A stretch of DNA of 57,410 nt, taken from positions 1 to 57,410 of the forward strand of contig JALXEF010000086.1 of the NCBI GenBank assembly GCA_027069855.1. The letters are read 5' to 3'. The notes beneath the pieces are model-generated. The model ran no database searches. It saw only the letters and a list, made by a program, of their open reading frames with translations, and was not told the DNA's origin. Each line of letters begins with the position of its first letter. Positions within the stretch are counted from its first letter, which is position 1. This DNA comes from a candidate division WOR-3 bacterium. Lineage in GTDB: Bacteria; Hydrothermota; Hydrothermia; WGAB01. Made by a program: the position numbers and the translations under genes. Positions 12,727 to 41,230 of the stretch are shown here, piece after piece.

Positions 12727-12737
12727 GAGGAATGAAC

Positions 12738-16732: not shown

Positions 16733-16746
16733 AGGGAGGGTAAGTC

Positions 16747-17796: not shown

Positions 17797-17798
17797 TA

Positions 17799-18176
17799 AT
17801 GAGCGAGGCCCAAATGACCAACTTGGACATTCAGTGCGCCGAATTGGGTCGGCGTCTGGCCGATATCCGAGGCATGGATGAAAAAACCGTCAATGCATTA
17901 ATGAGCGTGCTTGAAGAGCAAGGGCCCTATGCCATGTTCCTCTATCTCCGTGCTCGCCATAATCAAGTTGCGGGTCCTGTTACCGAACAAGCGTTGGATT
18001 TCCTTAGAAAACCCGGGATTTTCGGCCACAAGGTGGGTGAGACAAACGATGTCTTTGATGCCATCCAACGCTTAGCCGAGGATTTAGATGATCTTCTTTT
18101 CGTTCGCGACCTGTTGCGCACGGCCCTTTCTTATGCTCGTTATCACTTAAAGACCAAGGGAGGCGGCGCATCGTGA
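17799..18176 (+). CDS. cmr5: Small subunit Cmr5/Cas11
   Basis: 125-aa helical protein; VLEEQGPYA.FLYL, L.YARYH; canonical position. Confidence 0.8.
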   Translation: MSEAQMTNLDIQCAELGRRLADIRGMDEKTVNALMSVLEEQGPYAMFLYLRARHNQVAGPVTEQALDFLRKPGIFGHKVGETNDVFDAIQRLAEDLDDLLFVRDLLRTALSYARYHLKTKGGGAS

Positions 18177-20763: not shown

Positions 20764-20764
20764 A

Positions 20765-21850
20765 ATGGCGTACCCGGTGTTAACCGGTTCCGTGCTGGTG
20801 GAGGCCAACGGCGCCGCCCTGAACAATGCGGGGCTGGCAGAAGGGGCACGAGTGGAAAACCGTGTCGTGGTCAAGCAGATTCGCCTCGGCCGGCTTCGCT
20901 TTCCCTACGTTTCGGGACAGGCATGGCGGCGCTGGTGGCGGGAGGTGCTGTACTCCGACTTCGGCTGGACCCCCAGCGAGGTCATCCGTCAGGCGAAGAG
21001 CGCTTACACAAAAGGTAATCCCATCGCGCACGAGGAGGACGACCTCTTCGGCTACATGGCCGCTCGCAAGCGGCGGCGAGGACGGCGAGGGGCTGAGGAG
21101 AGTGAAGAGACGGCAGAGGGAGTAACGGGGACGAACCGACGTATTTCTCCTCTCAAAAATAGCCTCCTGATCTCTGTTCTGCCCAATGTCATTACCTCCG
21201 ACTTCGGCCATTTCTCCCGCAACTTGCCGCCGGATGCGGACATCATCCCTTTCGAGGCTGAACATTACACGACCTACTTGCAAGGTGTGTTTACCATCTC
21301 GCTTTCCGACGTGGGGCGCTTTGTGGTAGGGGAGATGGCCGACCTCTCAGATGAGATCGTTAATGCCCACAGGGATCGGTTGGAACAGGATCCTAACAAC
21401 GACCGGACCTACTGGCTTCCGAAGGAGGAACGGATCAGGCGGGTCCAGGATGTCATCAAGGCCCTGGGGCGCTTGCGAGGCGGAGCCCACCTTGCCCGCA
21501 ACCTCTCCGATGTCACGCCAATGGTTGTGCTGGTAGGTTTTCTCGACGGAGGAAACGCTCCCTTCCAGCGCCTCTTTGATCCGGACGAGAACAATGAGCG
21601 GGTTCGCCTAAACCTGAAGCGGCTGAAGTCGGTCCTTTCCGACTACAAAGACCGCCTTCTGGGCGGGGAAGGCAAGCCTCTCTTTTTCGGCTATCGCCCC
21701 ACCGTGCTGGCGAACGAGGAGGAAGTCCTGGCTGCGTTCCAGAACGAGGCCCCCTTCAACGAATGCATAGAGATTGCGGGTACGCCCCAGCAAGCGCTGG
21801 AGAGAGCAGCCGCGATGGTTCCCAAGACCTTTGAGAAGTATGTCTCCTGA
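20765..21850 (+). CDS. cas7: Type I-B Cas7/Cst2/DevR
   Basis: ALNNAG, PYVSGQAWRRW.RE, DDLFGYM.A, R.SPLK.S, GGA......DVTP. Confidence 0.93.
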   Translation: MAYPVLTGSVLVEANGAALNNAGLAEGARVENRVVVKQIRLGRLRFPYVSGQAWRRWWREVLYSDFGWTPSEVIRQAKSAYTKGNPIAHEEDDLFGYMAARKRRRGRRGAEESEETAEGVTGTNRRISPLKNSLLISVLPNVITSDFGHFSRNLPPDADIIPFEAEHYTTYLQGVFTISLSDVGRFVVGEMADLSDEIVNAHRDRLEQDPNNDRTYWLPKEERIRRVQDVIKALGRLRGGAHLARNLSDVTPMVVLVGFLDGGNAPFQRLFDPDENNERVRLNLKRLKSVLSDYKDRLLGGEGKPLFFGYRPTVLANEEEVLAAFQNEAPFNECIEIAGTPQQALERAAAMVPKTFEKYVS

Positions 21851-21871
21851 GCAGAGGGAGGTGAGGAAACC

Positions 21872-22090
21872 TTGAGAACAATACAGATTGATCTGCCGCC
21901 CGAGGTTTCGGAAGAGGAAGTTCGATTCCTTTTGGCCCTCAAGCTTTACGAGCTTGGCCGTTTGAGCCTGGGCCAGGCCGCGAAGTTGGCCGGTTACTCG
22001 AAGCGGACCTTCATCGAGCTGCTGGGAAAACACGGCGTCCCTGTGGTCGCCTACTCCGCTGAGGAGTTGCGCGAGGAAGTTGAAGGATGA
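21872..22090 (+). CDS. UPF0175 family HTH antitoxin
   Basis: LALKLYELGRLSLGQAAKLAG.S...F.ELL...GV; TTG start with SD. Confidence 0.88.
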   Translation: MRTIQIDLPPEVSEEEVRFLLALKLYELGRLSLGQAAKLAGYSKRTFIELLGKHGVPVVAYSAEELREEVEG

Positions 22091-22539
22091 AGGAGCCGGC
22101 GGTTGCGGACAGCACATGCCTCATCGGTCTGGAGCGCATCGGGCGTCTTGACATCTTGCAGGCGCTGTTTGAGCCTCTGGTCATACCGCCCAAGGTTCAG
22201 GAGGAGTTTGGGGTGGCGATCGAGTGGATCGAAGTGGAACCACCTTCTAACCGGATGTTGGTAGATGCCCTGAAGTTGATGGTAGACGAGGGGGAAGCGG
22301 AAGCAATCGCTTTGGCGATGGAAAAGGGTTGGCCGCTGGTTGTGGACGATCGTAAAGCCAGAGCGTGGGCGAAACGTTTGGGCATTCGGGTGATCGGCAC
22401 GGCGGGGATTTTGGTCCGCGCGAAGCGGGAGGGTGTTATTCCGGCGGTTAAGCCGTTGATAGAAGCGTTGCAACAAGTGGGCTTTCGTCTGGGCACTGAG
22501 CTTGTGAGCGAGATGCTGCGCCTTGCGGGGGAGGAGTGA
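22087..22539 (+). CDS. DUF3368 PIN-domain (VapC-like) toxin
   Basis: VADSTCLI, V.EE, D.GEAEAIALA, VDDRKAR, GT.GIL..AK..G; overlaps the antitoxin stop. Confidence 0.9.
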   Translation: MKEPAVADSTCLIGLERIGRLDILQALFEPLVIPPKVQEEFGVAIEWIEVEPPSNRMLVDALKLMVDEGEAEAIALAMEKGWPLVVDDRKARAWAKRLGIRVIGTAGILVRAKREGVIPAVKPLIEALQQVGFRLGTELVSEMLRLAGEE

Positions 22540-22545
22540 AGTATT

Positions 22546-23232
22546 ATGCTGGAAGCCCTTCGTATTACGCTCACCGCGTACACTGCTTCTTTCCGGGTGC
22601 CCCATTTTGTCGGGCACCAGTTAACCCTTCCGGTGCCGCCGCTGTCCACAATTTACGGCTTGATCTCGGCGGCGGTTGGCCGCTGGGTGCTGCCGGAAGA
22701 AGTGGAATGGCTGGCTTATCGGCTCGAGTATGGCGGAAAGCAGATGGACCTGGAGGCCATATGGACGGTGGAACGTAAAAAGCCTCACGAAAGCGCCCGG
22801 TTTGTGACCCGCAATGTCATTCAGCGCGAGTTCCTCGCCTTCCCAGCCTTAACCCTTTACCTGCCCCCGGAGTGGGAGGCACCCTTCCGCCGCCCCCGTT
22901 ACCCCCTCCTGTTGGGTCGGACCCAGGATGTGGCCGGGGTGGAGGAGATCGCTCGGACGGTTTTAGAACCGGTAGATGAGGGCGAAGTTGGAGGCGTTTT
23001 GCTCCCCATGGAGCTGATCAAGATGGCTGAGCGCGGGTCCGCGTGGCTCCACAACCTTCCCGTCGCTTTCACCGAAGAACCGCTGCGCCATCCCCTCCGG
23101 ATGCATATCTTCGGCGTTGTGGATGCCCGTCGTCCGGCACATCTTCGAGGCCCGGAGGGCTGGCTGGTCAGGGATACCCAGACAAGTGCTATTGTGCCGA
23201 TATATCGGCGGGAATGGGTCCAGGGCGAATAG
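22546..23232 (+). CDS. cas5: Type I-B Cas5
   Basis: TASFRVPH, TLPVPPLSTIYGLISAAVG, REFL, P..LGR.QD. Confidence 0.93.
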   Translation: MLEALRITLTAYTASFRVPHFVGHQLTLPVPPLSTIYGLISAAVGRWVLPEEVEWLAYRLEYGGKQMDLEAIWTVERKKPHESARFVTRNVIQREFLAFPALTLYLPPEWEAPFRRPRYPLLLGRTQDVAGVEEIARTVLEPVDEGEVGGVLLPMELIKMAERGSAWLHNLPVAFTEEPLRHPLRMHIFGVVDARRPAHLRGPEGWLVRDTQTSAIVPIYRREWVQGE

Positions 23233-23251
23233 AGAGAGGAGGGGAACCGGC

Positions 23252-25522
23252 ATGATCCCTGAGGAGCCGCTGGCGAAATCGGGGGATCGGCCTGTTCCTT
23301 TAACTGAACATTCCCTCCAGGTCGCCCGCTATGCTGCGGCGATGGCAGAAGCTTACCGTGACCACTGGCGGAAGATCCTTGGGGAGGAGTGGACCGAGCG
23401 TCTATGCCAAGCCCTGGTTGTCGCTGCCCTCGTCCATGACCTCGGCAAGGCAGCCAAGGGGTTCCAACGCGCTCTGAATAACCCACGCGCACCCTGGGAA
23501 TTCCGGCACGAGGTTCTCTCCGCTGCACTTCTCTTAAGTCTTGACGATGGTGAAGAGGTGGAACTCGCTGCTGGAGCGGTCCTGACCCACCATCGGGATT
23601 TAGAGGACCAGAAGCTGAGGCAAGATGCTGGATGGGCTCCTTTGCCGGAACCGGATCTGGAGCGGAAGATAAGAGAAAGGTTCCATCAGAAGGCCAGGGA
23701 GATGAAGGCTTTTTGGGAGTGGGTCAGGACTTTCTGGGAAAACCAGACCGAGTTGTCCTCTTGGAATCTTCCCAAGACTCCAGAACTCCTCTTGCCCCCG
23801 ACTCCCTTAATCGAAAAGCTCGAACGAGATCTTTCTCAAGGAGAATTCTTCGAGAGTCCCAAAGCCTTGGCCCTGCTTTTGGCCCGAGGGAACCTCATGG
23901 CAGCGGACCATGCGGTAAGCGCTGGCGTTTCTACCTTTAAAATCCATTTCCCCATCCCCTCCTTTCCGCCCCCACGATCCTTCCAAAAGGAAGTGGGAGA
24001 TCATCGGGGAGACGCCCTTCTGGAGGCACCCACAGGATCGGGGAAGACCATAGCTGCCCTCCGCTGGGCTCTGAACAATCGCAAAGCGGGCGAACGAATC
24101 TTCTATCTTCTCCCTTACCAAGCGAGCATCGAGGCCATGGCGAATACACTGCAAAAGATGTTTAGAAAGGAACACGTGGCTGTTCTTCATGCCCGTGCCT
24201 TAGATTATGCTTTTCGTGAGCACTTTGAATCTACAGGCGAATATGAAACTGCCGTTGAAAAAGCCCGAGAAGAGGTAGAACTGAACCGCCTTGCCCACAA
24301 ACCCATCAAAGTAGCTACACCGTTTCAACTGCTTAGGTGGCTGTTCGGCATCCACCGTTTTGAAATCGGTATCAGCGAGATGGTTGGAGGCCTCTTCATC
24401 TTCGACGAGATCCACGCCTACGATGCGCATACTGTCGCACTAATAGTAGAAATGGTCAAAGTATTGAGGAAGTTGGGGGGACGCTTTCTTTTCATGAGCG
24501 CAACCTTTCCGGAATTCCTCAAAAATCTTCTGCGAGAGGCCTTAAACAATGAACCAGTCGAATTCAGTTTGGGAAAAGGATCAAAAGACGAATGGACTGT
24601 GCACTTTCTTAGACGGGTACGTCATCGTATCCGCTGGCATGAAAAATATCTCGAAGACTTGATTCCAACAGCCATAGATGCGGTTCGGAAAGGTCAGCGG
24701 GTCCTGATCGTGGCCAACCGGGTCACCCAGGCCCAGGAGATTTACCGCCGACTATCTGAGGACCTCAGCGGTGTGCTCCTTTTGCATTCCCGTTTCACCC
24801 GGAGGGACAGAGTTGCCAAGGAAAATACGATTATGAATGCACTCCGTGGTAAAGGCGGAGAGGATGTAAACGTTCTGGTGGCCACCCAGGTGGTGGAAGT
24901 CTCCTTGGACATAAGCTTTGACACGATTTTTACCGAAGTAGCCCCTGTGGACGACCTGCTACAGCGCTTCGGACGGGTAAACCGTTACGGGGAACACCCT
25001 GACGGGGTTGAAGTCCACGTGGCCACTTCTTTTAATGCGGATCGCCTCCGTCCGGTCTATGACCTGGATCGACTTCAAACGACCCTGGAAAGAGCACCTG
25101 GGGACGGCACTCCTTTAACAACGGAAGTAGCTACTTCTTGGGTTCATGCCGTTTACAAGGATGGCTGGACTTCAAAAGAGTGTCAAAAGTTTGAGCAAGC
25201 ACGAGGATCATTCCAGAAAGTCCTTTCCTCACTTCGTCCCCTCCATCATTTTGTTGAGATGGAACAGGAATTCTATGGTTTATTTCAAAGCGTTGAAGTT
25301 CTCCCCGTAAGGCTCTTTAGTGAGTACCACGAGCATTGGAAAAATAAACGCTATCTTTTAGCTCATCAACTCCTGGTCCCCATTTCTCTGGGTACTTTTT
25401 GGAGATTAAATAAAGATGGGAGCCTTATAAAACGTGATAGAATACTGATCGCCAATGTTGCCTATGATTCACAACTCGGTTTGCTTCCTGAAAGGATAGA
25501 TTTAGATGACTCGTTCCTTTGA
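23252..25522 (+). CDS. cas3: Cas3 HD nuclease-helicase
   Basis: AKS..L.EH, HDLGKA, RHE..S, HH, AAD, APTGSGKT, DEIH, MSAT, HSRF, ATQVVEVSLD, QR.GRVNR. Start ATG 23252. Confidence 0.96.
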   Translation: MIPEEPLAKSGDRPVPLTEHSLQVARYAAAMAEAYRDHWRKILGEEWTERLCQALVVAALVHDLGKAAKGFQRALNNPRAPWEFRHEVLSAALLLSLDDGEEVELAAGAVLTHHRDLEDQKLRQDAGWAPLPEPDLERKIRERFHQKAREMKAFWEWVRTFWENQTELSSWNLPKTPELLLPPTPLIEKLERDLSQGEFFESPKALALLLARGNLMAADHAVSAGVSTFKIHFPIPSFPPPRSFQKEVGDHRGDALLEAPTGSGKTIAALRWALNNRKAGERIFYLLPYQASIEAMANTLQKMFRKEHVAVLHARALDYAFREHFESTGEYETAVEKAREEVELNRLAHKPIKVATPFQLLRWLFGIHRFEIGISEMVGGLFIFDEIHAYDAHTVALIVEMVKVLRKLGGRFLFMSATFPEFLKNLLREALNNEPVEFSLGKGSKDEWTVHFLRRVRHRIRWHEKYLEDLIPTAIDAVRKGQRVLIVANRVTQAQEIYRRLSEDLSGVLLLHSRFTRRDRVAKENTIMNALRGKGGEDVNVLVATQVVEVSLDISFDTIFTEVAPVDDLLQRFGRVNRYGEHPDGVEVHVATSFNADRLRPVYDLDRLQTTLERAPGDGTPLTTEVATSWVHAVYKDGWTSKECQKFEQARGSFQKVLSSLRPLHHFVEMEQEFYGLFQSVEVLPVRLFSEYHEHWKNKRYLLAHQLLVPISLGTFWRLNKDGSLIKRDRILIANVAYDSQLGLLPERIDLDDSFL

Positions 25523-26006
25523 GAGCATTAACGCCACGGTCTTTTACGCCTATCAGATTTGCAAGCGGGAGGCCTGGTTCTATTACCACAGGGTGAATCC
25601 TCCCCAGGAGCATCCACTTCTGGATCTGGGGCGCTTGGTCCACGAGACTTCCTACCGTCGATCCCGAAAGGAAATCTTTGTGGATCAGATTCTCAAAATC
25701 GACCTGTTCCAGAAAGAACTTGTGGCCGAGGTCAAACGCTCTTCACGCCACAGGAAAAGCGCCCGCCTGCAACTGGCTTATTATCTTTACTACCTCAAAC
25801 ACGAAAAGGGCCTTGAACTGAAAGGCATCCTTCTATTTCCCAAGGAACGAAGAACAGAAAAACTCGAGTTGACACCGGAACTGGAACGACAAATCGAAGA
25901 TCTTTTACAAGAGATGAAGCAAGTCTTGAGGGCCGAGTTGCCTCCTTCGCCTGTACGGATTCCCCATTGCCGTTCCTGCTCCTTCCTGGAGGTATGTTGG
26001 GGATAG
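25506..26006 (+). CDS. cas4: Cas4 exonuclease
   Basis: CKREAW, G..VHE, ID, EVK, QL.YY, C..CS...C. Confidence 0.95.
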   Translation: MTRSFESINATVFYAYQICKREAWFYYHRVNPPQEHPLLDLGRLVHETSYRRSRKEIFVDQILKIDLFQKELVAEVKRSSRHRKSARLQLAYYLYYLKHEKGLELKGILLFPKERRTEKLELTPELERQIEDLLQEMKQVLRAELPPSPVRIPHCRSCSFLEVCWG

Positions 26007-26009
26007 CCC

Positions 26010-27008
26010 ATGAAGCGCGTCATCTATATCTTCAGCAACGGCTGGCTCAAACGGGAAGGCAACACCCTCGTTTTGATCGGGGAGGAAGACGAACCCAAGA
26101 AAGTGATCCCCATTGAAGTGGTGGAAGAGATCCGGGTATTCTCCGAACTCACGACAAATAAACGCCTCCTGGAGTTCCTGACCCAGAAACATATCCCCAT
26201 GCATTTTTTCAACCATCACGGTTACTATATGGGCACTTACTACCCCAGGGAATACATGAACTCCGGGCTGATCACCTTGAAACAGGCGGAGCATTTCTTA
26301 AATCCCGAGTGGCGCATGGAGTTGGCCCGTGCGTTCGTGTACGGTGCCATTTCAAATATGCTCTTCGTCCTCCGTACCTATAGCTCCCGGGGCCGGGACC
26401 TGAGTTTCCAGATCCATGCACTGGAAAAGCAACTGTCCAAAATCCCGGATGCCGAAGCCCCTGCCGAACTCATGGCTGTGGAAGGACATGCCCGGGACCT
26501 GTACTACACGGCCTTTGACCTGATCACCCAAAACCCTGATTTTTCCTTTGAAACACGCACACGGCGGCCTCCTGCCAACCGAATGAATGCATTGATTTCC
26601 TTCGGGAACTCGCTTCTCTATGTAACAGCCCTCTCAGAAATTTATCGAACCCATCTGGACCCAAGAATCGGCTATCTTCATCAAACCAACGAAAGGAGTT
26701 TTTCCCTGAACTTGGATCTGGCAGAGATCTTCAAGCCCCTGATCGTGGACAGGACCATCTTCTCGCTCATCAACCGAGCAGAGATCAACACAGGCGACTT
26801 CCACGAAGAATTGGGCGGAATCTACCTTAAAGAGGCCGGGCGCAAGAAATTTATCCAGGCCTTTGAAAAGAGGCTCGCCGAAACCCTGACCCATAAACGC
26901 CTGAGGAGGAAGGTTTCTTATCGCCGATTGATTCGACTGGAATGCTACAAACTTTACAGACACTTCCTTGGAGAAGAAGATTACTTTCCCTACATACGGA
27001 CCCGATAA
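26010..27008 (+). CDS. cas1: Type I-B Cas1
   Basis: EG..R..YY, R.RRPP.N..NALISFGN.LLY, LDP.IGYLH, SL.LDLAEIFKP. Confidence 0.97.
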   Translation: MKRVIYIFSNGWLKREGNTLVLIGEEDEPKKVIPIEVVEEIRVFSELTTNKRLLEFLTQKHIPMHFFNHHGYYMGTYYPREYMNSGLITLKQAEHFLNPEWRMELARAFVYGAISNMLFVLRTYSSRGRDLSFQIHALEKQLSKIPDAEAPAELMAVEGHARDLYYTAFDLITQNPDFSFETRTRRPPANRMNALISFGNSLLYVTALSEIYRTHLDPRIGYLHQTNERSFSLNLDLAEIFKPLIVDRTIFSLINRAEINTGDFHEELGGIYLKEAGRKKFIQAFEKRLAETLTHKRLRRKVSYRRLIRLECYKLYRHFLGEEDYFPYIRTR

Positions 27009-27707: not shown

Positions 27708-30700
27708 GTTCCCAGCCTACCTACAAGGAATGGAAACAGAAATTCGCCTCCACCACCCCCTTTGAGCTCCGGGAGTTCCCAGCCTACCTACAAGGAATGG
27801 AAACGTAGTGCCACCGATACTCCAGACCAGGTTACACCAAGTTCCCAGCCTACCTACAAGGAATGGAAACTCGTGTACAGCATGGCACACCTCCTTTTGG
27901 TTTGGGGTTCCCAGCCTACCTACAAGGAATGGAAACGGCCGTGGCCCGCACGCCCAGGCCAAGGGGTTTCATGTAGTTCCCAGCCTACCTACAAGGAATG
28001 GAAACGCACCCTCCAGTCAACCTGTGCCCCACCCCCCTCCCGTTCCCAGCCTACCTACAAGGAATGGAAACAGGCCTTCGGTGCTGTAGAAGAGGTGCAC
28101 CCCGGGCTCGTTCCCAGCCTACCTACAAGGAATGGAAACGTGGCTCAAAAATAGGAGGTTCATGATGGCACTCAAAGTTCCCAGCCTACCTACAAGGAAT
28201 GGAAACATGAGAAGTGAAGGGGCCCCGCGCATAGTCGTATCCCGTTCCCAGCCTACCTACAAGGAATGGAAACTGGGATCACGCCTCCTGGGTACGATCC
28301 GTCTGGGAAGTTCCCAGCCTACCTACAAGGAATGGAAACAGCCTGGAAATATGCGAAGCACCTCGCTCTGCAGGTGCGTTCCCAGCCTACCTACAAGGAA
28401 TGGAAACCGAACGCCTCTACCTGCGAGACGCAGGGGAACAGGGGTTCCCAGCCTACCTACAAGGAATGGAAACGGTTGAATTGGTCTTCTATGTAGGCCC
28501 GGACCGCGAAGTTCCCAGCCTACCTACAAGGAATGGAAACTGCTGATCTGGTTGCCGGGATCGTGAGGGTGTGTTCGTTCCCAGCCTACCTACAAGGAAT
28601 GGAAACCCAAGAGACCATACCGGGATACTGCACCAAACCGAGTTCCCAGCCTACCTACAAGGAATGGAAACGGACCATTTCGGGGAGGATGCAGTCCCAG
28701 ACGGAGGTTCCCAGCCTACCTACAAGGAATGGAAACTCGTGTCCACCTCCGAGGGCCCGGGCTGGGGAATGTACGTTCCCAGCCTACCTACAAGGAATGG
28801 AAACCGAACTTCAGACTCAGGAACTTCTTGAACATCACGGGTTCCCAGCCTACCTACAAGGAATGGAAACGCGGAGGGAAGGAATGACCTGCCCAGCGGT
28901 CCGCATGTTCCCAGCCTACCTACAAGGAATGGAAACTCGGTGGTGTAAAGCAGATGGCCGACTGGTGTTGCACGGTTCCCAGCCTACCTACAAGGAATGG
29001 AAACAGCATCTCGGCCTCCAGGGTGTCGCTGGTTTCTCCGTGTTCCCAGCCTACCTACAAGGAATGGAAACGTTCCTTCTCCACGGGGACGGCGTTCACC
29101 ACGAGCCGTTCCCAGCCTACCTACAAGGAATGGAAACGGCCTACCCCGGGCTGGTGGCGGCGATGGTGCCCCGTTCCCAGCCTACCTACAAGGAATGGAA
29201 ACCAGTAAGTCGGTGAGCGTGACTACCTGTTGGAGATTGTTCCCAGCCTACCTACAAGGAATGGAAACCTCTGGAAGTCCTCCAATATGCCGGAGAAACC
29301 GTCCGTTCCCAGCCTACCTACAAGGAATGGAAACCGCTCTCCTGGAGGACGACATGGTGGCGTACCTGTTGTTCCCAGCCTACCTACAAGGAATGGAAAC
29401 TTCTGGCAACCCCAGGGGCCGAGAGGTTCATGTGGTGTTCCCAGCCTACCTACAAGGAATGGAAACTGCTTGGATTGCCTCCAGTCCAGCGCGACCTTCG
29501 TGTTCCCAGCCTACCTACAAGGAATGGAAACCAAGGTGCCCAGGCGGATGCGCAAGCCGGATAAAAGTGTTCCCAGCCTACCTACAAGGAATGGAAACTC
29601 ATATTGGTGGTGTCGGTGTTGATATCTCCGGTAGGGTTCCCAGCCTACCTACAAGGAATGGAAACTGCAATCTCCCGGGCCATCCGCCATGTCCTGGGGT
29701 GTTCCCAGCCTACCTACAAGGAATGGAAACATGAAGAGCGTAGGGAGTGCTGTGATCGCATCCGGGTTCCCAGCCTACCTACAAGGAATGGAAACTCCTC
29801 AAGGTGGTGGTCAAGGGCGGTCGGTTCACCGTTCCCAGCCTACCTACAAGGAATGGAAACAGGCCACCATCCGGGGTGGCCAGCGGCCGGTTGAGGGTTC
29901 CCAGCCTACCTACAAGGAATGGAAACGTTCTATGCATGGCCCCATCGGGCGGTCCTTGAAGGTTCCCAGCCTACCTACAAGGAATGGAAACGGTCCACGG
30001 CCCCGTCCTCAATCACCACCTGCACCACGTTCCCAGCCTACCTACAAGGAATGGAAACTCTCTCGCCTTGAGCAGTTTGCCCGGTGCCGGAGGGTTCCCA
30101 GCCTACCTACAAGGAATGGAAACGTTCCTAACCGGAGGTAAAACAATATGAGCGCTTTGTTCCCAGCCTACCTACAAGGAATGGAAACAGAGCTTGATCA
30201 CGGCAAAACTCAGCGGGTCCGCCGGGTTCCCAGCCTACCTACAAGGAATGGAAACCATCGTTCCAGGTACTGCCGTCATACGACTGAAGTACCGTTCCCA
30301 GCCTACCTACAAGGAATGGAAACCTATGCTCGCATAGTTCAGGACATCACGGTAGTTGCCCGTTCCCAGCCTACCTACAAGGAATGGAAACGAGAATGTC
30401 GGAGGACTCAATCTTTGTGGTGTCGCCGCGTTCCCAGCCTACCTACAAGGAATGGAAACGGCTTTCTCGATGGCACGTAAGACTTCTCGCTCAAGTTCCC
30501 AGCCTACCTACAAGGAATGGAAACGCGTAGCAAAGCCGCTGGCCGTGTTCGTTTCTGGCGGTTCCCAGCCTACCTACAAGGAATGGAAACGGAAATCCGG
30601 CCGAGGGGGATGCGGGGGATACGGGGTTCCCAGCCTACCTACAAGGAATGGAAACCACTATCAGGAACGATATTATCCTTGTAATACTTACGTTCCCAGC

Positions 30701-33700
30701 CTACCTACAAGGAATGGAAACGAGAAAGCGGGAGAAAGCGTGCTGCCCATCCCGTTCCGTTCCCAGCCTACCTACAAGGAATGGAAACGTTATTATCTTA
30801 ATTGGAGCTCTCAGGCGATCAACGGTTCCCAGCCTACCTACAAGGAATGGAAACCATTCTACCCTCACGAGGTAGAACTCAAAGTCGTCTGGTTCCCAGC
30901 CTACCTACAAGGAATGGAAACAATTTCTCCCGGTCTGCGGTGAAGTAAAGATTGGCAAGTTCCCAGCCTACCTACAAGGAATGGAAACCTATTATCAACG
31001 CCCTCATGGCTGTTGAAGGACGCACGTTCCCAGCCTACCTACAAGGAATGGAAACTTCCACATGTCCCAGGGTCACGGGCCCATACTTGAGCGTTCCCAG
31101 CCTACCTACAAGGAATGGAAACGGCGCATGGTGACCGTATCCCCTGCCGTGTCGATGGCGTTCCCAGCCTACCTACAAGGAATGGAAACGCCTCCAGGTC
31201 GGCGCGGTACACCAGGAAGAGGATCGTTCCCAGCCTACCTACAAGGAATGGAAACGTACACAATGTCGGCATAGTCTTCTAATGCCGCCTGGGTTCCCAG
31301 CCTACCTACAAGGAATGGAAACCCGATGCAAATGTAGTCAATGCCGTAGGTCTTGGCGAGTTCCCAGCCTACCTACAAGGAATGGAAACAATATCGGGTT
31401 GGATCAACTGGCGCGGGCCCGAATGCGTTCCCAGCCTACCTACAAGGAATGGAAACATCTATCTCCAGGGTCGTGTTTGCGAGGTCCTGGTAGTTCCCAG
31501 CCTACCTACAAGGAATGGAAACTCAACTCCTTGACCTTATTCCGGAGTTCCATATTTCCCGTTCCCAGCCTACCTACAAGGAATGGAAACTGTTGTAGGG
31601 GGTTAATGCCAAGCGGTGGTACTTCGTGTTCCCAGCCTACCTACAAGGAATGGAAACGCGACATGGCAGCTGCTATGGGCGTGAACATCCTGGTTCCCAG
31701 CCTACCTACAAGGAATGGAAACCGAAGGACCCCGTTGCCTTTTGGGTGCTGTCAAACTTGTTCCCAGCCTACCTACAAGGAATGGAAACGGGCGGTCGTT
31801 ATGGACTCGGCGGAGTTGTCTATGCTGTTCCCAGCCTACCTACAAGGAATGGAAACAAAGTACTTGCGATGAGGGATATACTGTCACTTGTAAGTTCCCA
31901 GCCTACCTACAAGGAATGGAAACGAATGGCAATCTGAACCTTGAGGATCGCCCAGCGGAGTTCCCAGCCTACCTACAAGGAATGGAAACGCCAGGCCCCA
32001 CTCTGTCCACGGTGAAGGCGTACAGGTTCCCAGCCTACCTACAAGGAATGGAAACATCTATCTCCAGGGTCGTGTTTGCGAGGTCCTGGTAGTTCCCAGC
32101 CTACCTACAAGGAATGGAAACGTCCACACCCTGGGCCTTTACCAGGTACCGGAGGGCGTTCCCAGCCTACCTACAAGGAATGGAAACATGCCCTCTCGGA
32201 TATCCCCGATGTAGTTCCCAAGCCGTTCCCAGCCTACCTACAAGGAATGGAAACCAATGTAACCCTCTGGAGAAAGGCGGAGATGTACGAGTTCCCAGCC
32301 TACCTACAAGGAATGGAAACCGATGAGGATGAGATACAGGCCGAACAGTGCGATCGCGTTCCCAGCCTACCTACAAGGAATGGAAACCCATCACGATCAC
32401 CATCATGCCCGGCCGTGAGGCCGTGTTCCCAGCCTACCTACAAGGAATGGAAACGTGCAGGATTTCCGGTTTCGGGTAAAGGGCGAAGGACGTTCCCAGC
32501 CTACCTACAAGGAATGGAAACTGCCCACCAGGGGAGAAGGCTATAGATCTTCTCCACGTTCCCAGCCTACCTACAAGGAATGGAAACTGAGTTCCTGCTT
32601 CAGGTCCTCCTTGAGGGCCTGGAGTTCCCAGCCTACCTACAAGGAATGGAAACGATACGCCGACATGCTTCACCTCCTGGATCACAAACGTTCCCAGCCT
32701 ACCTACAAGGAATGGAAACGCCGGAAACAGATTTACCCTTGAGAGCGCTCAGGCCGTTCCCAGCCTACCTACAAGGAATGGAAACTCGGCGCGGCCGCAG
32801 GGTGCTGGGGGGGCGACACTGGGTTCCCAGCCTACCTACAAGGAATGGAAACGTATTTCTTCGGCCTGCTACGGAAAGTCGCCCCGCTGTTCCCAGCCTA
32901 CCTACAAGGAATGGAAACGCGCATAGTCGTATCCCTCCCAAGGCTGCACGGAGGGTTCCCAGCCTACCTACAAGGAATGGAAACCTCTGTCGCAACTTTT
33001 CGCCCGCCACCCTTGCCCTGGGTTCCCAGCCTACCTACAAGGAATGGAAACGTGAAACTTGACCCTCACCTGGGGGCCTATGTGCACGTTCCCAGCCTAC
33101 CTACAAGGAATGGAAACGCGCCTCGCCCCGGCCCGGGCGGTGCTGCGCGCGCAAGTTCCCAGCCTACCTACAAGGAATGGAAACCCAGTTTGGGGTCACG
33201 CTGGGCAACCACACGCCGGGGTTCCCAGCCTACCTACAAGGAATGGAAACGGTACCACTCATCTACGGCGATTGTTGGCCAGTCATGTTCCCAGCCTACC
33301 TACAAGGAATGGAAACTACTGGAGGGCCTTCACCAGGCGGTTTGCCACCGAGTTCCCAGCCTACCTACAAGGAATGGAAACATGTCGGCCTTGATGCTGT
33401 CCCAGTCGGGCGTGTCAGGGTTCCCAGCCTACCTACAAGGAATGGAAACTGGCGGGAACTGGCCCAAGAAATCCTGCGGATCAACGTTCCCAGCCTACCT
33501 ACAAGGAATGGAAACACTATCTGGGAAAAGTTTGGACCTCGCCCCTTAAAGGAGTTCCCAGCCTACCTACAAGGAATGGAAACGATTTGTAGAGTTTAAA
33601 CACTCGTTAATCTCTTGCGGTGTTCCCAGCCTACCTACAAGGAATGGAAACGCGATACGGTTCTCGTGGACGTGCGTCCCCAGGAGGTTCCCAGCCTACC

Positions 33701-36700
33701 TACAAGGAATGGAAACGGTTATTTGTTTAACTCGTCTGCCTACCCTGTCTCTGTTCCCAGCCTACCTACAAGGAATGGAAACAGGGTCCTCTGAAGTTGA
33801 CGAATGGCCAGGACCGCCGGTTCCCAGCCTACCTACAAGGAATGGAAACCGCTTTCGTGGCTTGTGCCGCTTACGCTGATGGTGGGTTCCCAGCCTACCT
33901 ACAAGGAATGGAAACTGGGTGGTGGCCCTACTGGCAGCGGCAGGATTGAGCGGTTCCCAGCCTACCTACAAGGAATGGAAACTGCTTCTCCATCTCCTTC
34001 TTCAGTCGCTCCTCTTCCAGTTCCCAGCCTACCTACAAGGAATGGAAACATCTCAATCTCAAGCCAGTGTTCACGCAGGAATGCGGTTCCCAGCCTACCT
34101 ACAAGGAATGGAAACCTGGGATGAGCACGCAGAAGCGGAAACCCAGCACCGTTCCCAGCCTACCTACAAGGAATGGAAACCATTCTGGGCGACACGGTAA
34201 TGGTGCGCGGCATCAAGTTCCCAGCCTACCTACAAGGAATGGAAACTGGAACGCCTCCATCGCCCTCTGCACTTCCTTGGACGTTCCCAGCCTACCTACA
34301 AGGAATGGAAACGTGGACCCGAAGGCCGTGGAGTGGGAGCGTAACCGCGTTCCCAGCCTACCTACAAGGAATGGAAACACAGGATGGCCTCGTCTCCGTA
34401 TCTGGTCACGGCCTGTTCCCAGCCTACCTACAAGGAATGGAAACGAGGCCCTCGGCGATGTGCTTTAGGAGGGCCGTTAGGTTCCCAGCCTACCTACAAG
34501 GAATGGAAACGGTACCACTCATCTACGGCGATTGTTGGCCAGTCATGTTCCCAGCCTACCTACAAGGAATGGAAACTGGCGGGAACTGGCCCAAGAAATC
34601 CTGCGGATCAACGTTCCCAGCCTACCTACAAGGAATGGAAACGAAGGCCCGGGGCACATACGGCACGCTGTCCTCAAAGTTCCCAGCCTACCTACAAGGA
34701 ATGGAAACGCAGGTCTCCGGCGATGTCCTCCAGTTCCCTGGGATCGTTCCCAGCCTACCTACAAGGAATGGAAACGTGCTTCAGATCCTACCTGGGTTGA
34801 AACTTGAGCCCGTTCCCAGCCTACCTACAAGGAATGGAAACACCTGCCCCTGGCTCCGATGGACCGCCCCTGGGACGTTCCCAGCCTACCTACAAGGAAT
34901 GGAAACATGTCTTTAAAGGTGATTTCGGACGCCCGTTTCATCCCCGTTCCCAGCCTACCTACAAGGAATGGAAACGCAATGAAAAGATGCTTGCCATCTT
35001 TATCGCTGATGTTCCCAGCCTACCTACAAGGAATGGAAACTGGGTCATCTTGCTGATGATGTTGCTGAGGTCGGCGTTCCCAGCCTACCTACAAGGAATG
35101 GAAACAGTTCCCCAGGCCTCAGCCGGAGGGATTTCACCCCTGAACGTTCCCAGCCTACCTACAAGGAATGGAAACTTTTTCAGAACTGACCAGCGAACCA
35201 ACGCGCCGCCGAGTTCCCAGCCTACCTACAAGGAATGGAAACACGCTTTGCAGGATCAGCAGGATTCCGCGTGCAAGGTGTTCCCAGCCTACCTACAAGG
35301 AATGGAAACGTTCCTCAACGACTTGTTTCTCCATGTACACCTGGGCGTTCCCAGCCTACCTACAAGGAATGGAAACTATTTGAGCACCCAGAGATCGGGA
35401 CTTTCCTGGTAGTTCCCAGCCTACCTACAAGGAATGGAAACTTGTCCTCAGATTTCATAGCAGATGCGATAGGTGATCTCGTTCCCAGCCTACCTACAAG
35501 GAATGGAAACCGGATACTGTACTTCTGCGCCTCCCGCTTCACCCACGTTCCCAGCCTACCTACAAGGAATGGAAACATGGTCACGAACCCGCCGTACCGG
35601 CGGGCCAGAGCCGTTCCCAGCCTACCTACAAGGAATGGAAACGCAAGGTCGTACGCCTTAGCACAGATACCGGCATAAGGTTCCCAGCCTACCTACAAGG
35701 AATGGAAACATCATTCCACCATTTCAATCAAGATAGGGACTTGACAGTTCCCAGCCTACCTACAAGGAATGGAAACGCGACATGGCGGCCGCTATGGGGG
35801 TGAACATCCAGGTTCCCAGCCTACCTACAAGGAATGGAAACCGCAGCCCTCCCGGTGTTCGCAGTACGCAGGGGGCCGTTCCCAGCCTACCTACTAGGAA
35901 TGGAAACTGATAATTGCGGTTAACACTACGCCCGTTTCCACCGTGTTCCCAGCCTACCTACAAGGAATGGAAACTTTCTTCAAAGCTTGGGGGTTTTACA
36001 AGTACGGAGCGTTCCCAGCCTACCTACAAGGAATGGAAACAAGTTTCCTTCGCCATAAAGGTTGTGCTAAACTCTCGTTCCCAGCCTACCTACAAGGAAT
36101 GGAAACGATAGCATTTACACGAATGCCCCTGCGGAAGGCGTACGTTCCCAGCCTACCTACAAGGAATGGAAACGGATTTGCTGCGGGTCGCTTGGGGTAA
36201 TGGATTTCGTGTTCCCAGCCTACCTACAAGGAATGGAAACTGATTTTGCGTCGGGCCTCTTCAACGGCAGCAAGATGTTCCCAGCCTACCTACAAGGAAT
36301 GGAAACCCGTTAATCGTTGTTCTCCAACATCGGCTTGAGCCGTTCCCAGCCTACCTACAAGGAATGGAAACATGCTATGACGTCGACCTTTTGGGCAGAG
36401 GTTGACAAGTTCCCAGCCTACCTACAAGGAATGGAAACCGCCGACCGCCAGGGTGCCGGGCTTCCCGGCCCGGGGGTTCCCAGCCTACCTACAAGGAATG
36501 GAAACCTTCCCTCGATGTAGGGGTAAGGGGTGATGTCGATCACGTTCCCAGCCTACCTACAAGGAATGGAAACGTACAACACACGGAGAAACACCGTGCG
36601 GCCACTCGGTTCCCAGCCTACCTACAAGGAATGGAAACGGAGGGTAAACATGAACGGTGCTTTTCCCTTAGCCCGTTCCCAGCCTACCTACAAGGAATGG

Positions 36701-39562
36701 AAACATAAATCTGGACATTCCTGAAGACAGAAGACTGCTTGTTCCCAGCCTACCTACAAGGAATGGAAACTCAGCCGCAAGGCCAGCCTCAGAGGTGCCA
36801 GCATCGGCCGTTCCCAGCCTACCTACAAGGAATGGAAACGGTTCAAAGGGGACTTTCAGCACCTTGATGACCTCTTCGTTCCCAGCCTACCTACAAGGAA
36901 TGGAAACACAACCTCCGGGGCGAAGGCCTGGACTTCGTGATCCGTTCCCAGCCTACCTACAAGGAATGGAAACGTCCTACCTGTAAGCAGGAACAGGGCC
37001 CTGGCTCCGTTCCCAGCCTACCTACAAGGAATGGAAACGGCGCACGGTGACCGTATCCCCTGCCGTGTCGATGGCGTTCCCAGCCTACCTACAAGGAATG
37101 GAAACGGGCGATCCTTCCCCTGGTGTTTCTGGGAGCAGGACTGTTCCCAGCCTACCTACAAGGAATGGAAACTGCCTTGACCCGGTCCCCGTAGTCTCAG
37201 TTTAATCGTTCCCAGCCTACCTACAAGGAATGGAAACGGCTTTGACAGGAGATAGACGCCCACAATCAATCGCGTTCCCAGCCTACCTACAAGGAATGGA
37301 AACCTTTGAGGGTGGCATGGCAAGGTTCATGAACACCATGTTCCCAGCCTACCTACAAGGAATGGAAACTGTTCCTGGACGCCATCGACACGGCAGGGGA
37401 TACGGTGTTCCCAGCCTACCTACAAGGAATGGAAACGAGTTTCCTGGAGTCTGCGGCGCACTTCGGGGCGCAGTTCCCAGCCTACCTACAAGGAATGGAA
37501 ACTGGACAGGATAAGCGGCTGGGAAATGGGGTTGTGGTGTTCCCAGCCTACCTACAAGGAATGGAAACATGGCCTACCTGGCCACTCCCGGCTCCAATGT
37601 GCCGGGTTCCCAGCCTACCTACAAGGAATGGAAACTGTTCCTGGACGCCATCGACACGGCAGGGGATACGGTGTTCCCAGCCTACCTACAAGGAATGGAA
37701 ACGAGTTTCCTGGAGTCTGCGGCGCACTTCGGGGCGCAGTTCCCAGCCTACCTACAAGGAATGGAAACGTTCGATCGACTGGTCCGGCCAGATCTCGAAC
37801 CTGGTTCCCAGCCTACCTACAAGGAATGGAAACGACTATCTGTTTAACTCGTCCGCTTATCCCGTCCCGTTCCCAGCCTACCTACAAGGAATGGAAACTC
37901 ATCGAAAAGGCAATCAAACTTCGGAGGGAAGGAAAAGTTCCCAGCCTACCTACAAGGAATGGAAACCTGGATCAGGTTGTATAGGCTATTTCTGTCCATT
38001 CCGTTCCCAGCCTACCTACAAGGAATGGAAACAACATCGGGCTGGATCAACTGACACGGGCCCGGATGGTTCCCAGCCTACCTACAAGGAATGGAAACGT
38101 ATCAGGAGAGCACCGATGTCTGGGTGCTCAAATAGTTCCCAGCCTACCTACAAGGAATGGAAACTGGCCTGGAACTGGAACGGCAGGCCCTGCAGCTCCG
38201 GGTTCCCAGCCTACCTACAAGGAATGGAAACTGTCTCTGTAGATGTGGAGCACCACGGGCCCCTCCGTTCCCAGCCTACCTACAAGGAATGGAAACAAAT
38301 TTCACGACTTGGGGAGTGTTTTGTGTGGGGCGGGTTCCCAGCCTACCTACAAGGAATGGAAACTTGGGCCACCTCGTGGACTACACCGGTAGCGGCCTCC
38401 GTTCCCAGCCTACCTACAAGGAATGGAAACGATTATCTGTTCAACTCGTCCGCTTATCCTGTTCCCTCGTTCCCAGCCTACCTACAAGGAATGGAAACAT
38501 ATGTATCAGAGGGCACTAAGGCATATAGTTGACGCGTTCCCAGCCTACCTACAAGGAATGGAAACGAAAACGAAGGCGACCCTGGTCTCACCCTTCATCT
38601 CCGTTCCCAGCCTACCTACAAGGAATGGAAACGCGCTCCTCAATCGTTGCGATCTGCTTTTCGTAGCCCGTTCCCAGCCTACCTACAAGGAATGGAAACA
38701 CACAAGCGCGTGCTGGAACACAGCGGTCAATGTGCGTTCCCAGCCTACCTACAAGGAATGGAAACTAATCAGCTTTGCTCCGTGTTCCACAGCAGCCCGA
38801 AGTGTTCCCAGCCTACCTACAAGGAATGGAAACGGTTCACCACCTTCGTGGCTACATATGCAGCCGCCAGGTTCCCAGCCTACCTACAAGGAATGGAAAC
38901 GTAATCCAGCCCCTCCAGCTCCTCCTCGGGGATATCGAGTTCCCAGCCTACCTACAAGGAATGGAAACTGTTTTCGGCCAGCACGCCGTGGAGCGTGTGC
39001 TGGCGTTCCCAGCCTACCTACAAGGAATGGAAACTTATACAGAGTTAAAGAGGCACCCAGGCCAGGAAAGGGTTCCCAGCCTACCTACAAGGAATGGAAA
39101 CTGCCGGCTCATACTGTTTTCCCCTCCGCAGCGGCCCTGTTCCCAGCCTACCTACAAGGAATGGAAACCCTGGTATGACCCCCGGCCCCGGCGTTGGCGA
39201 GATGGTTCCCAGCCTACCTACAAGGAATGGAAACCAAAATCCCGAATGAAAAGTTCCCAGGCGGCCAGAGCCGTTCCCAGCTTACCTACAAGGGATGGAA
39301 AGGTGACTGCCTGAGAGAAAGCCAGCGACAGATTCTGCGTTTCCAGCCTACCAACAAGGTATGGAAACGGCCTCCAGTTCTCCGATCCGCTGTTTCAGAT
39401 CGTCCGTTCCCAGCCTACCTAAAGAGGAATGGAAACCTCCTCAAGTTGATCGACAGCCTGGCCCAGAACGTTCCCAGCCTACCTACAAGGGATGGAAAGG
39501 ATGCTCGCGCGCAAGACTCGCCTTATAACCACTTCTCGTTCCCAGCCCATAAGAAATGAAAG
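27708..39562 (+). CRISPR. CRISPR array, repeat GTTCCCAGCCTACCTACAAGGAATGGAAAC (30 bp), roughly 178 units
   Basis: Identical repeats with mostly 34-39 bp spacers. Count estimated from length, not counted. One internal variant at 35878; five degenerate trailer repeats (39273, 39339, 39406, 39470, 39538) give + orientation. Confidence 0.99.
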
Positions 39563-40256
39563 GACTAACTGTCGATGCACGGTGCAGCCGATCAGCCGGT
39601 ACGAGGCAAATCGCAGGGGGATCAAGCCCCATGCACCACCGCCGAAGGACCTGATGCCGGACCAGGGGTTTGCGTACAACCCGGCGGTGGCCTTTCGGCG
39701 GTTGCAAAAGACCACCTGGGACGAAGACCTCCGGGACATCGGGCCGGGGGGCTGTGAAGAGGTTTCCTTTGTAGAGCGGGTTTTCCGGAGGGGGTGTAAA
39801 CCCTTTGAGGAGTTGCCCCGGCGGCCGTTGCCCCAGGCATTCGGGATCAGGGGCAAGGAATTGGAGGAATACATCAAAACTCTGGATGGATGGTATCGCA
39901 CGCCTGCTGGGATCTATGTGCGGGTGAACACGGAGGACCTCCTGCAGCACATCCCGGAGGATCGGTGGAGATTTTTACCGTTGCTACCCTGGACATTGTT
40001 GAAACCTGCTGAAATATGGCTGGGAGTTAAATCTAAGGGACACGGCCCCGTGCTCAGAACCTTTAGCATCTTTGAAGACCCCAACAAAGAAATTGTGTAT
40101 GTGGCCATTGTGGATGTGGAGAAGTTTATGAGTGTGCTCACGACGTTCCCGATCAGCCTGAAAGAGGGGGTGCGCGGGGGGACCAAAAAGATCAGGAAAA
40201 AACTCCGGTATATTGAGAGGAAAATCAGACAGGGGGAATTGATCTATCAAAAATGA
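39492..40256 (+). pseudogene. N-terminally truncated phage MuF (minor head) protein with C-terminal PBECR-type nuclease domain, fused in frame to the array end
   Basis: NCRCTVQPI and PDQGFAYNP (MuF C-terminal motifs) from 39567; R.RFLPLL..TL..P.EIW ... TTF ... YIERKIRQGELIY resembles PBECR2. The first 25 codons derive from CRISPR repeats and a spacer. Alternative ATG at 39654. Confidence 0.7.
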
Positions 40257-40327
40257 GCCCCGGCTTCTCCGCCCTTCCACCGGAGCCTTCCAGGCTTCAT
40301 CGGGGGGCGGCCCTCCACCTGGAATCA
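40249..40327 (-). ncRNA. Predicted ~78-nt two-hairpin sRNA convergent to the PBECR ORF
   Basis: Own promoter; stems TTCCAGG/CCTGGAA and GGCTCCGG/CCGGGGCT; complementary loops CCGCCC/GGGCGG; terminal U-tract. Confidence 0.55.
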
Positions 40328-40332
40328 TCCAT

Positions 40333-40361
40333 AGTATAGCCAGCATTCTGAATCCCGTCAA
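40333..40361 (-). promoter_or_regulatory. Near-consensus sigma70 promoter
   Basis: TTGACG-17 nt-TATACT on the minus strand. Confidence 0.75.
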
Positions 40362-40405
40362 CCCCCCTTGACTTTTCTGTGTGCTTGCCTACAGGGTAGG
40401 GGGCG

Positions 40406-40465
40406 ATGGAAAAGTGGCTGGAAGTGTTCAAGGCTGGAGAGTATCCGCAGGGGTCTTTACCAAGA
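40406..40465 (+). pseudogene. 5' remnant of a Mu-like prophage protease/scaffold gene
   Basis: MEKWLEVFKAGEYPQG, then (one-base shift) VFT; resembles N-termini of Mu-like head proteases that follow MuF; similarity then ends. Confidence 0.45.
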
Positions 40466-40788
40466 AAACCGGTTAGAATTCACAATTCCGTGAGTCTTTA
40501 TAAATTGCTCGCAATAATTTGGACTTCCAAGACGATCCCGGACTGGACGAGACTATAAGCAACCGACGGCAACAGGCATAAATTAAAACTGACACTTTAG
40601 GTGGTAGTCTTGAGTTTCCAGGAACTCCAAGGATCCATGAATGCAGTCACCTCAAGCTGACAATTTTGATGGTGGCCTTAGAAGATACCGGAACCGACAG
40701 ATGCTTCTGAAAAACTGCGCAGGCTGAAGAGGATCCAACGGCATGGGGTGCCAGCATATGGCAGGGCCGTCTTTCCTGCGCTCCTGCC

Positions 40789-40995
40789 TCACCGATGGAA
40801 CCCTTCGGAGGCCCGGTTAAGCCGTCCGTCTGGATCTTCTGGGGCGGATGCTTTGTCGCGACGCACAAACCAAACCAGAACAATCATCGCTACCGCGAGG
40901 ATCGAAACCAATAGCCACAAAGGGAAAATTCCCAGGGCATCCATCAGAACAAAGAACGTCAACCAGGTAATGATTTCCAGAAGGCCCCACATCAC
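40789..40995 (-). CDS. Small two-TM membrane protein
   Basis: Two hydrophobic segments; TTGACA-17-TAAGGT promoter (41028-41000) ends 7 nt before ATG 40992. Confidence 0.55.
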   Translation of the reverse strand: MMWGLLEIITWLTFFVLMDALGIFPLWLLVSILAVAMIVLVWFVRRDKASAPEDPDGRLNRASEGFHR

Positions 40996-41230
40996 TCAAA
41001 CCTTACAAGCCATCCCTCAGAGTGTCAAGGGGAAATTCCACTGTTCCAGGACCAGGCTGCAGGAAACTTTTCCGATTTCCTCACAGAGAATCTTCTTGCC
41101 CAGAATCCTCCGGTGGATCGGGAAATCGCTGTGACCATGCCCGACCACGCAGAGCATAAATAAGCCGATCACGCTGGATGCAGGGGATTGTCATCCGGGT
41201 TCTGACCGCTCTTTGGTCTATAATGGGTGT

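Follow-up and report, generated by a model that had tools for sequence, protein, structure and literature searches.

The window analyzed here, an entire contig of 57,410 nt (JALXEF010000086.1) in the 2.1-Mb assembly of a candidate division WOR-3 bacterium, contains the 3′ remnant of a phage MuF gene that encodes a PBECR2 RNase domain and, directly behind it on the opposite strand, a candidate small-RNA gene (40249-40361). An earlier note on this DNA had proposed a promoter-driven, minus-strand kissing-loop RNA convergent on a PBECR nuclease gene, and had likened the pair to a type III toxin-antitoxin system. The first proposal is supported by comparison with phages: two families that are unrelated in sequence carry one architecture after MuF-PBECR2, in which an opposite-strand promoter precedes two hairpins with covarying stems, the loops pair with each other and covary, the MuF stop coincides with a terminator, and G-U pairs show a strand bias. 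The second proposal is not supported, as discussed below. The genes and motifs at the locus are the following.

39567..40256, plus strand: 3′ remnant of the phage MuF-PBECR2 gene, in which the tail of the MuF domain (NCRCTVQPI) is joined by a linker to the PBECR2 domain (Pfam and alignment with phage MuF proteins)
40361-40356, minus strand: −35 box TTGACG of the predicted small-RNA promoter (read in the sequence and by consensus scan)
40338-40333, minus strand: −10 box TATACT, separated from the −35 box by a 17-nt spacer and lying 8 nt ahead of hairpin 1 (sequence and consensus scan)
40288..40324, minus strand: hairpin 1, with a 7-bp stem TTCCAGG (40324-40318)/CCTGGAA (40294-40288) and a 23-nt loop (sequence and folding)
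40256..40287, minus strand: hairpin 2, the terminator stem, 8 bp, GGCTCCGG (40287-40280)/CCGGGGCT (40263-40256), two of the pairs being G-U, with a loop of 16 nt containing GGGCGG (40274-40269) (folding)
40249..40253, minus strand: terminator U-run within CAUUUUUG, 3′ of hairpin 2, over the final two codons before the stop of the PBECR2 reading frame (TGA, 40254-40256) (sequence)
40368..40373, plus strand: TTGACT, set back to back with the −35 box of the minus strand (GTCAA-C6-TTGAC) (sequence)
40406..40456, plus strand: next phage head gene (Mu-like protein I type; head protease/scaffold), first ~17 codons, then broken (sequence)

The remnant gene and the element behind it

Pfam places PBECR2 (PF18810) in the remnant open reading frame (ORF) with an E value of 3.3e-10 (40.6 bits, the cut-off being 27.1; positions 14-120 of the 120-position profile), and the His, Asp and Arg columns of the domain are kept when the window ORF is aligned with its phage homologues. 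The PBECR assignment of the earlier note is thus correct as far as the domain goes, but the gene is a truncated MuF fossil, and its ORF (39492-40256) runs through the last degenerate repeats of a CRISPR array, with phage-derived sequence beginning at ~39567. Gene callers place the start of the remnant ORF at the ATG at 39654 (protein P0001). No protein immunity gene follows the nuclease, as had been noted; the next plus-strand ORF is the truncated start of the head protease/scaffold gene at 40406, a downstream head-gene position at which intact phages carry Mu-like_Pro. Metagenome contigs show a breakpoint at 40453.

The promoter hexamers, the two hairpins, their complementary loops and the U-run at the end of the ORF are all present on the minus strand as originally read. 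The promoter, TTGACG-17-TATACT, has 10 of 12 consensus matches in the scan. Three sites of at least 10/12 occur on both strands of the whole 57-kb window, compared with 1.2 expected, and 5000 Markov shuffles put the chance of such a promoter within the 149 intergenic nt at 0.24%, an estimate to be read in the light of the promoter having been chosen after the fact. The loop of hairpin 1 carries CCGCCC (40310-40305) together with a CCCGAU motif, and CCGCCC is complementary over six bases to GGGCGG (40274-40269) in the loop of hairpin 2; complementarity of this length arose in 2.1% of 20,000 loop shuffles (P = 0.021).

The two-hairpin fold has an energy of −31.3 kcal/mol, compared with −31.6 kcal/mol for the minimum free energy structure, and makes up about half of the ensemble. 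Hairpin 1 has a helix probability of ~0.5 and an energy of −15.8 kcal/mol when folded alone, while hairpin 2 reaches −14.1 kcal/mol on the minus strand versus −7.2 kcal/mol on the plus strand, an asymmetry caused by its two G-U pairs. The motif GGTGGA(A)GGGC (10-11 nt), which the earlier note had picked out as repeated, can indeed be read twice in 40249-40361, and a repeat search of the same interval found no direct-repeat family. No Rfam 15 family matches the window at gathering score (cmscan). Taken together, these motifs predict a transcript of ~75-80 nt from a sigma-70-type minus-strand promoter, with two loop-pairing hairpins and an end at an intrinsic terminator. By analogy with the Thermus-type phages described below, the plus-strand TTGACT at 40368..40373 is possibly a relic of a promoter for the downstream head gene.

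Close relatives of the remnant ORF are scarce. None was found in viral, genome or metagenome contigs, where one distant MuF surfaced, and none among 60 relatives or the 63 other genomes of the class. A word-based protein search returned no longer proteins and, at similar length, only the ORF itself; tblastn against phages gave no match, HMMER found only 9 proteins at E ≤ 0.001, and the back-translated pattern of the first codons of the downstream gene had no match in viral contigs. Among contigs of four public runs, those of run X2 include an identical copy of 40141-40372. Two further metagenome variants (loose ends at 40335 and 40362) read TTGACA-17-TACACT and TTGACA-17-TATTC with spacers unrelated to that of the window; what is conserved is the pair of promoter hexamers and the distance between them, and not the spacer sequence.

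Structured RNAs behind MuF-PBECR2 in two phage families

The earlier note had proposed looking downstream of MuF-PBECR2 homologs for a conserved convergent promoter and covarying loop pairing, and we found both in each of two phage families. The route to the Thermus/Meiothermus type was a distant PBECR2 protein (P0009), which matches MuF of the Meiothermus phages MMP7 and MMP17, of Thermus phage Riverbug and of a Leptolyngbya phage. Gene order in the matched phages is portal, MuF-PBECR2, a gap of 140-290 nt, and protease/capsid genes. A conserved element directly 3′ of the MuF stop is common to MMP7 and Riverbug, and its core motif occurs in 20 contigs of IMG/VR; together with MMP7, MMP17 and Riverbug these give 17 distinct sequences. 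Read on the strand opposite MuF, the element folds into a 5′ hairpin with an invariant 19-nt loop and a GC-rich 3′ hairpin. Including the loop-loop helix, 98.2% of the cells of this structure are paired, as against 31-56% in slid controls, and 10 of the 24 pairs show changes on both sides. None of 500 shuffles reached the observed value on four of five covariation measures; 285 of 500 did so for further pair types. The loop-loop helix itself has one compensatory change, in MMP7, where both partners are altered (CCUGG/CCAGG to CCCGG/CCGGG).

The strand and the ends of the RNA can also be read from these loci. The strand opposite MuF has 11 G-U pairs and 6 mismatches, whereas the MuF strand has 2 and 15. 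An extended −10 element (TGn-TAnnnT) ends 8-11 nt ahead of the RNA 5′ end in 16 of 18 distinct loci, and a U-run of at least five in eight follows the second hairpin in 10 of the 18. Each phage has a single copy of the RNA; in MMP7 and Riverbug it shares its strand with the lysogeny genes and runs counter to the entire block of lytic genes. No relevant Rfam match was found at E values up to 1 in four of the loci (cmscan), and a relaxed motif search that allowed other loop sequences returned 120 stretches, and none of the 71 new loci scored proved to be a further full-length match. A covariance model of this family (R1), built on very similar sequences (effective number 1.71), scores its 22 family sources at 85-103 bits.

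Two side observations concern this family. Beyond the RNA gene, Thermus-type phages carry on the plus strand TTGCAT or TTGTAG-17-TAnnnT and a hairpin with a U-run ahead of the protease gene (L012:4400-4580, L007:3040-3140 and relatives), an arrangement that suggests a promoter and a leader terminator, as would be used in antitermination control. In the window, at 40585-40641 on the plus strand, a hairpin GAGUUUCCAGGAACUC has the UCCAGG loop of the Thermus-type terminator and gives a weak R1 match (10.7 bits, E 0.016), which is probably due to chance.

The second family was gathered by PBECR2. In RcapMu and RR1-B, MuF-PBECR2 is followed by a gap of ~100 nt and then a G-like gene, and 80 IMG/VR loci of this type provided 72 distinct regions with 60 distinct RNA sequences. 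A G-like ORF begins 86-117 nt after the MuF stop in 58 of the 80 loci and 10-12 nt after it in five; by the rule used, there is none in 17. Promoters with at least 9/12 consensus matches are present on the opposite strand in 41 of the 72 regions versus 2 on the MuF strand, and terminal U-runs of at least five in eight in 56 versus 3. The U-run falls at the MuF stop, the placement that it has in the window.

The fold of the RcapMu-type RNA has three parts: an outer stem, an inner hairpin whose loop reads GGUGAU, and a terminator whose loop reads AUCACC. Overall, 89.5% of cells are paired, 22 of the 24 pairs show changes on both sides, and none of 500 shuffles reached the observed values. Its loop-loop helix is 95.8% paired, with five of six pairs compensatory, and the loops change in step: GGTGAT/ATCACC (23 sequences), GGCGAT/ATCGCC (13), GGTGTG/AGCACC (8), GATGAT/ATCATC (2), GGCAAT/ATTGCC (1) and others. 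G-U pairs number 101 on the strand opposite MuF and 30 on the MuF strand. Six loci scanned with cmscan gave no relevant Rfam match at E values up to 1.

The RNA and PBECR2 occur together at most of these loci. In the Thermus-type set, 7 of the 10 upstream ORFs scanned have PBECR2; the MuF proteins of RcapMu and RR1-B carry it, and the RNA is present in most of the RcapMu-type set, which was itself collected by this domain. Four MuF genes without PBECR2 were checked: there is no gap behind those of Mu, MP48 and Mx4, and that of Villandry is followed by a 60-nt gap, which was not examined for an RNA gene. In the one gapless clade of the RcapMu type (L212, L213, L214 and L216, ~1501-2080 of each) the conserved WKxxKRGR motif is replaced by an acidic or neutral stretch, a loss that is one evolutionary event. 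An aligned catalytic-His residue was considered as a predictor of the RNA and dropped, since the RcapMu-type sequences vary at that column (R 38, P 11, A 9, others). As a separate observation, MuF of the Myxococcus phage Mx4 (L224:1968-3577) has a metallopeptidase-type C-terminal domain (Pfam ATLF, 28.1 bits) followed by an overlapping 67-aa ORF, a layout that fits a protein-immunity pattern rather than an RNA pattern.

Membership of the window element and function of the RNA

On these grounds we define a class, the kissing-loop RNA convergent on MuF-PBECR2. The window element lies directly 3′ of a MuF-PBECR2 stop on the opposite strand, with its own promoter a few bases ahead of the first hairpin. 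The loops of its two hairpins can pair over six bases (5-6 in the class), the second hairpin is followed by a U-run on the MuF stop region, and the G-U pairs favor the opposite strand. Its hairpin-1 loop also has UGG..GGCC..CCCGAU in common with the Thermus-type loop. To judge from the sequences, the window element would be a member of this architectural class and of neither sequence family. The comparative data support the RNA gene of the class and its strand well; we have high confidence in the class as a real RNA gene and consider it likely that the window element is, or was, one.

Known RNAs resemble the class in part. The OOP RNA of phage lambda is a cis-encoded convergent phage antisense RNA and, like the RNA described here, is short, has its own promoter, is directed at a phage gene's 3′ end and stops at an intrinsic terminator. 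Unlike OOP, the present RNA overlaps the ORF by its U-tract only, has a conserved intramolecular loop-loop pairing and lies in the head-gene block beside an RNase domain, outside the immunity region. In the type I toxin-antitoxin pairs txpA/RatA and bsrG/SR4, which have 3′-overlapping antisense RNAs and several of whose kind are prophage-borne, a convergent small RNA likewise meets the 3′ end of a potentially cell-harming gene. The antisense RNA of a type I pair is complementary to the toxin mRNA. Type I toxins, however, are small hydrophobic peptides, and what would count as the "toxin" in the present class is no small membrane peptide but the RNase domain at the C terminus of a virion protein (~380-490 aa); the window ORF product, a PBECR2 RNase domain, has at least 200 aa. 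The type III systems ToxIN and AbiQ/antiQ also set a structured, pseudoknot-like RNA beside an endoribonuclease gene in phage-host conflict. Their RNA consists of near-identical tandem repeats of ~30-45 nt; it is located upstream of the toxin gene, shares its strand and transcript, is followed by a terminator before that gene, and is processed by the ToxN-type toxin. In contrast, the RNA of the present class is a single unit, downstream and convergent, with its own promoter, and the nuclease has the PBECR2 fold, the only domain that Pfam finds in the window ORF. To this extent the type III-like arrangement of the earlier note is not supported: tandem repeats, an upstream co-transcribed position and a ToxN-type toxin are all missing.

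The reading that we favor, possible if short of probable, is that in the phage the RNA restrains the neighboring MuF-PBECR2 gene at the RNA level by antisense, a judgment that includes the RNA gene being real; as mechanisms, antisense action is favored slightly ahead of protein binding. The earlier note had held the overlap too small for antisense control, and in the window the overlap with the ORF is indeed confined to the U-tract and the stop codon. This objection loses its force if, as we infer, the late mRNA is polycistronic, for the RNA would then be fully complementary to its intercistronic segment from MuF to the next gene. Given such complementarity, pairing or transcriptional collision could limit leaky MuF-PBECR2 expression or read-through in phage-carrying cells.

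Several results weigh against this reading. In the window, the folding energy of the minus strand is unexceptional (z −0.15, with 82 of 200 shuffles equally stable; the plus strand has z −1.35), and model R1, run with filters off, returned no match at 40249-40330 at E values up to 10; membership of the window element therefore rests on shared architecture and position, without demonstrated homology. Divergent metagenome relatives align at ≥80% on both flanks and not across 40101-40355, a comparison in which the contigs gave fragments only and uncovered or skipped parts are not counted as absence. Among strain variants the remnant ORF has 3 synonymous and 5 non-synonymous changes, with no sign of constraint, and a search of sequencing runs for the locus turned up none made from RNA. 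In the phages, two of the 18 Thermus-type loci (L010 and L021) are without an opposite-strand promoter, and 4 of the 20 Thermus-type contigs carry the RNA without a neighboring PBECR2 (three distinct loci, L027 being a duplicate of L017). Its neighbor is a Mor/C late activator in L021 (760-1203), an unknown ORF in L010 (8259-8338) and a MuF stub in L017/L027, and no PBECR2 was found in the L010, L021 and L017 records searched, which are 20-40% complete. Five of the 80 RcapMu-type loci have PBECR2 but no gap for an RNA gene, and L222 is without the gap yet keeps most of WKxxKRGR. Finally, neither the intramolecular loop-loop pairing nor the invariant 19-nt Thermus-type loop is needed for cis-antisense action; both fit a shape-specific partner such as a protein.

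Such a partner could be the PBECR2 domain itself, which the folded RNA would bind as an inhibitor or pseudo-substrate, as a type III-like RNA antitoxin with a new gene layout that protects the producer or lysogen until MuF is packaged. A compact kissing-loop fold that covaries in two unrelated families is what one would expect of a shape-specific ligand over a simple antisense RNA. The RNA adjoins PBECR2 at most loci, the gapless RcapMu-type clade has lost WKxxKRGR, and the window fossil retains exactly the PBECR2 domain and the complete RNA gene. Furthermore, in phage Mu, where the C-terminal domain of MuF is called an inactive PBECR in the available part of Iyer et al. 2017 (PMC5512222), gene F overlaps gene G. 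We nonetheless consider binding of PBECR2 unlikely. The loss of the motif counts as a single event, and the gapless L222 has most of it; copies of the RNA are found in contigs without PBECR2; there are no tandem repeats and there is no co-transcription with the toxin; and the same source, as far as its available text goes, sees PBECR domains as injected effectors, which would need no immunity. More doubtful still is the broader proposal that Mu-head-type phages of distant hosts use a kissing-loop RNA to neutralize virion-packaged PBECR2 by direct binding and that the pair in the window was kept beside a CRISPR array as addictive or useful. If direct binding were true, the RNA would be an antitoxin whose gene layout and toxin fold are both new.

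A genuine phage small RNA might also be unrelated to PBECR2 and act as a lysogeny-strand regulator, an insulator/terminator module or a trans-acting RNA at the boundaries of late units. The RNA of L021, which sits after the Mor/C late-activator gene and before another operon, would fit this, as would the lysogeny-strand RNA of MMP7 and Riverbug inside an otherwise one-directional lytic block, the plus-strand promoter-like element just beyond the RNA in Thermus-type phages, and the invariant Thermus-type loop, which suggests a partner encoded elsewhere. No trans target of at least 9 nt is common to the MMP7 and Riverbug genomes, however, only scattered matches of 9-12 nt; the L010 and L021 copies, without an opposite-strand promoter, may be atypical; and the RcapMu-type RNA is found in the interval from MuF to G and does not precede the gene-I gap, which we take to be the site of the Mu late promoter. 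A role apart from PBECR2 is improbable in our view. That the motifs of the window came together by chance in decaying, GC-rich phage DNA, with no RNA gene at this place, is very unlikely. The folding energy equal to that of shuffles, the lack of a covariance-model match, the broken neighboring genes and the expectation of about one promoter-like site of such quality by chance in 57 kb would all agree with this. Against it, promoter, hairpins, complementary loops and terminator coincide in the right order and on the right strand, at the very site where two phage families have a structured RNA; two variants whose spacers are unrelated retain the promoter hexamers at their original distance; and the strand asymmetry of hairpin 2 agrees with both families.

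The RNA gene bears on the question of how phages that package RNase domains on MuF spare their own host cell. In the available text, Jamet et al. 2017 (PMC5576092) describe MuF proteins with C-terminal toxin-type domains in temperate phages, raise the matter of how the producer is protected, and report that 89.4% of 191 MuF toxin genes have a small ORF downstream. Protein immunity is assumed there for MuF toxins, yet none follows the PBECR2-type MuF genes, where a small-RNA gene stands in place of the downstream ORF. A structured small-RNA gene at the immunity-gene position, in phages of Deinococcota-type hosts, in those of alphaproteobacteria and in a vent bacterium, is thus a concrete candidate, and RcapMu in Rhodobacter and Riverbug in Thermus are culturable systems in which to study it. 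MuF-PBECR fusions, of the kind that the window ORF carries as PBECR2, are described in the available part of Iyer et al. 2017 (PMC5512222) as probably virion-packaged, injected RNases, with RNA binding suggested for the inactive Mu version; that part mentions no associated RNA gene for PBECR. The terms "RNA antitoxin" and "type III" do not occur in a 2026 preprint on BECR, and no such RNA was found in the literature on Mu-like and Thermus phages, MuF immunity, prophage antisense small RNAs and RcapMu, supplements not covered. The layout of this RNA in Mu-type phages therefore seems to be undescribed so far, and two covarying RNA families appear to be missing from Rfam 15; with their covariation, including loop-loop pairs, they are of value whatever their function.

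A phage fossil at the CRISPR trailer

A 0.9-kb phage fossil is made up here of the RNA gene, the half of MuF with PBECR2 and the opening codons of the following head gene. What had been read as a toxin gene in this genome is thus shown to be a fossil of phage origin behind a CRISPR array, whose trailer end adjoins the truncated MuF gene (39500-39570). The features of this context are the following.

27708..39499, plus strand: CRISPR array with 178 repeats of GTTCCCAGCCTACCTACAAGGAATGGAAAC, 173 of them perfect and the last copies degenerate, and spacers of 34-40 nt (repeat analysis)
40394..40430, strand not assigned: protospacer, 37 nt, flanked by two copies of a different CRISPR repeat on a contig of run X2 (contig loose ends at 40394 and 40430)

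The cas genes lie upstream of the array (~11700-27000) and are of type III (Csx11, Cmr-like) and type I-B (Cas7, Cas3, Cas4, Cas1b); five spacer sequences of the array are present twice. A public protein (P0003) is a translation through a related CRISPR array that continues into the same MuF fragment at 85% identity, and the junction of array and fossil is therefore common to a relative and old.

No spacer of the window array (best match 13 nt) or of the second array of the genome matches the fossil. In run X2, 40394-40430 is found as a spacer, and some CRISPR system therefore targets this phage; the 37-nt repeat that flanks it is related to the repeat of the second array of the genome (contig C37, L139:1044-1750).

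Farther along the window, a 128-aa ORF at 40748-41134 has no Pfam match. It lies in a segment, 40713-41200, at which contigs from three studies start to match exactly at 40713 and differ leftward, with a summed depth that is several-fold higher; it has the appearance of repeated or mobile DNA, or of a conserved element that recurs in several contexts.

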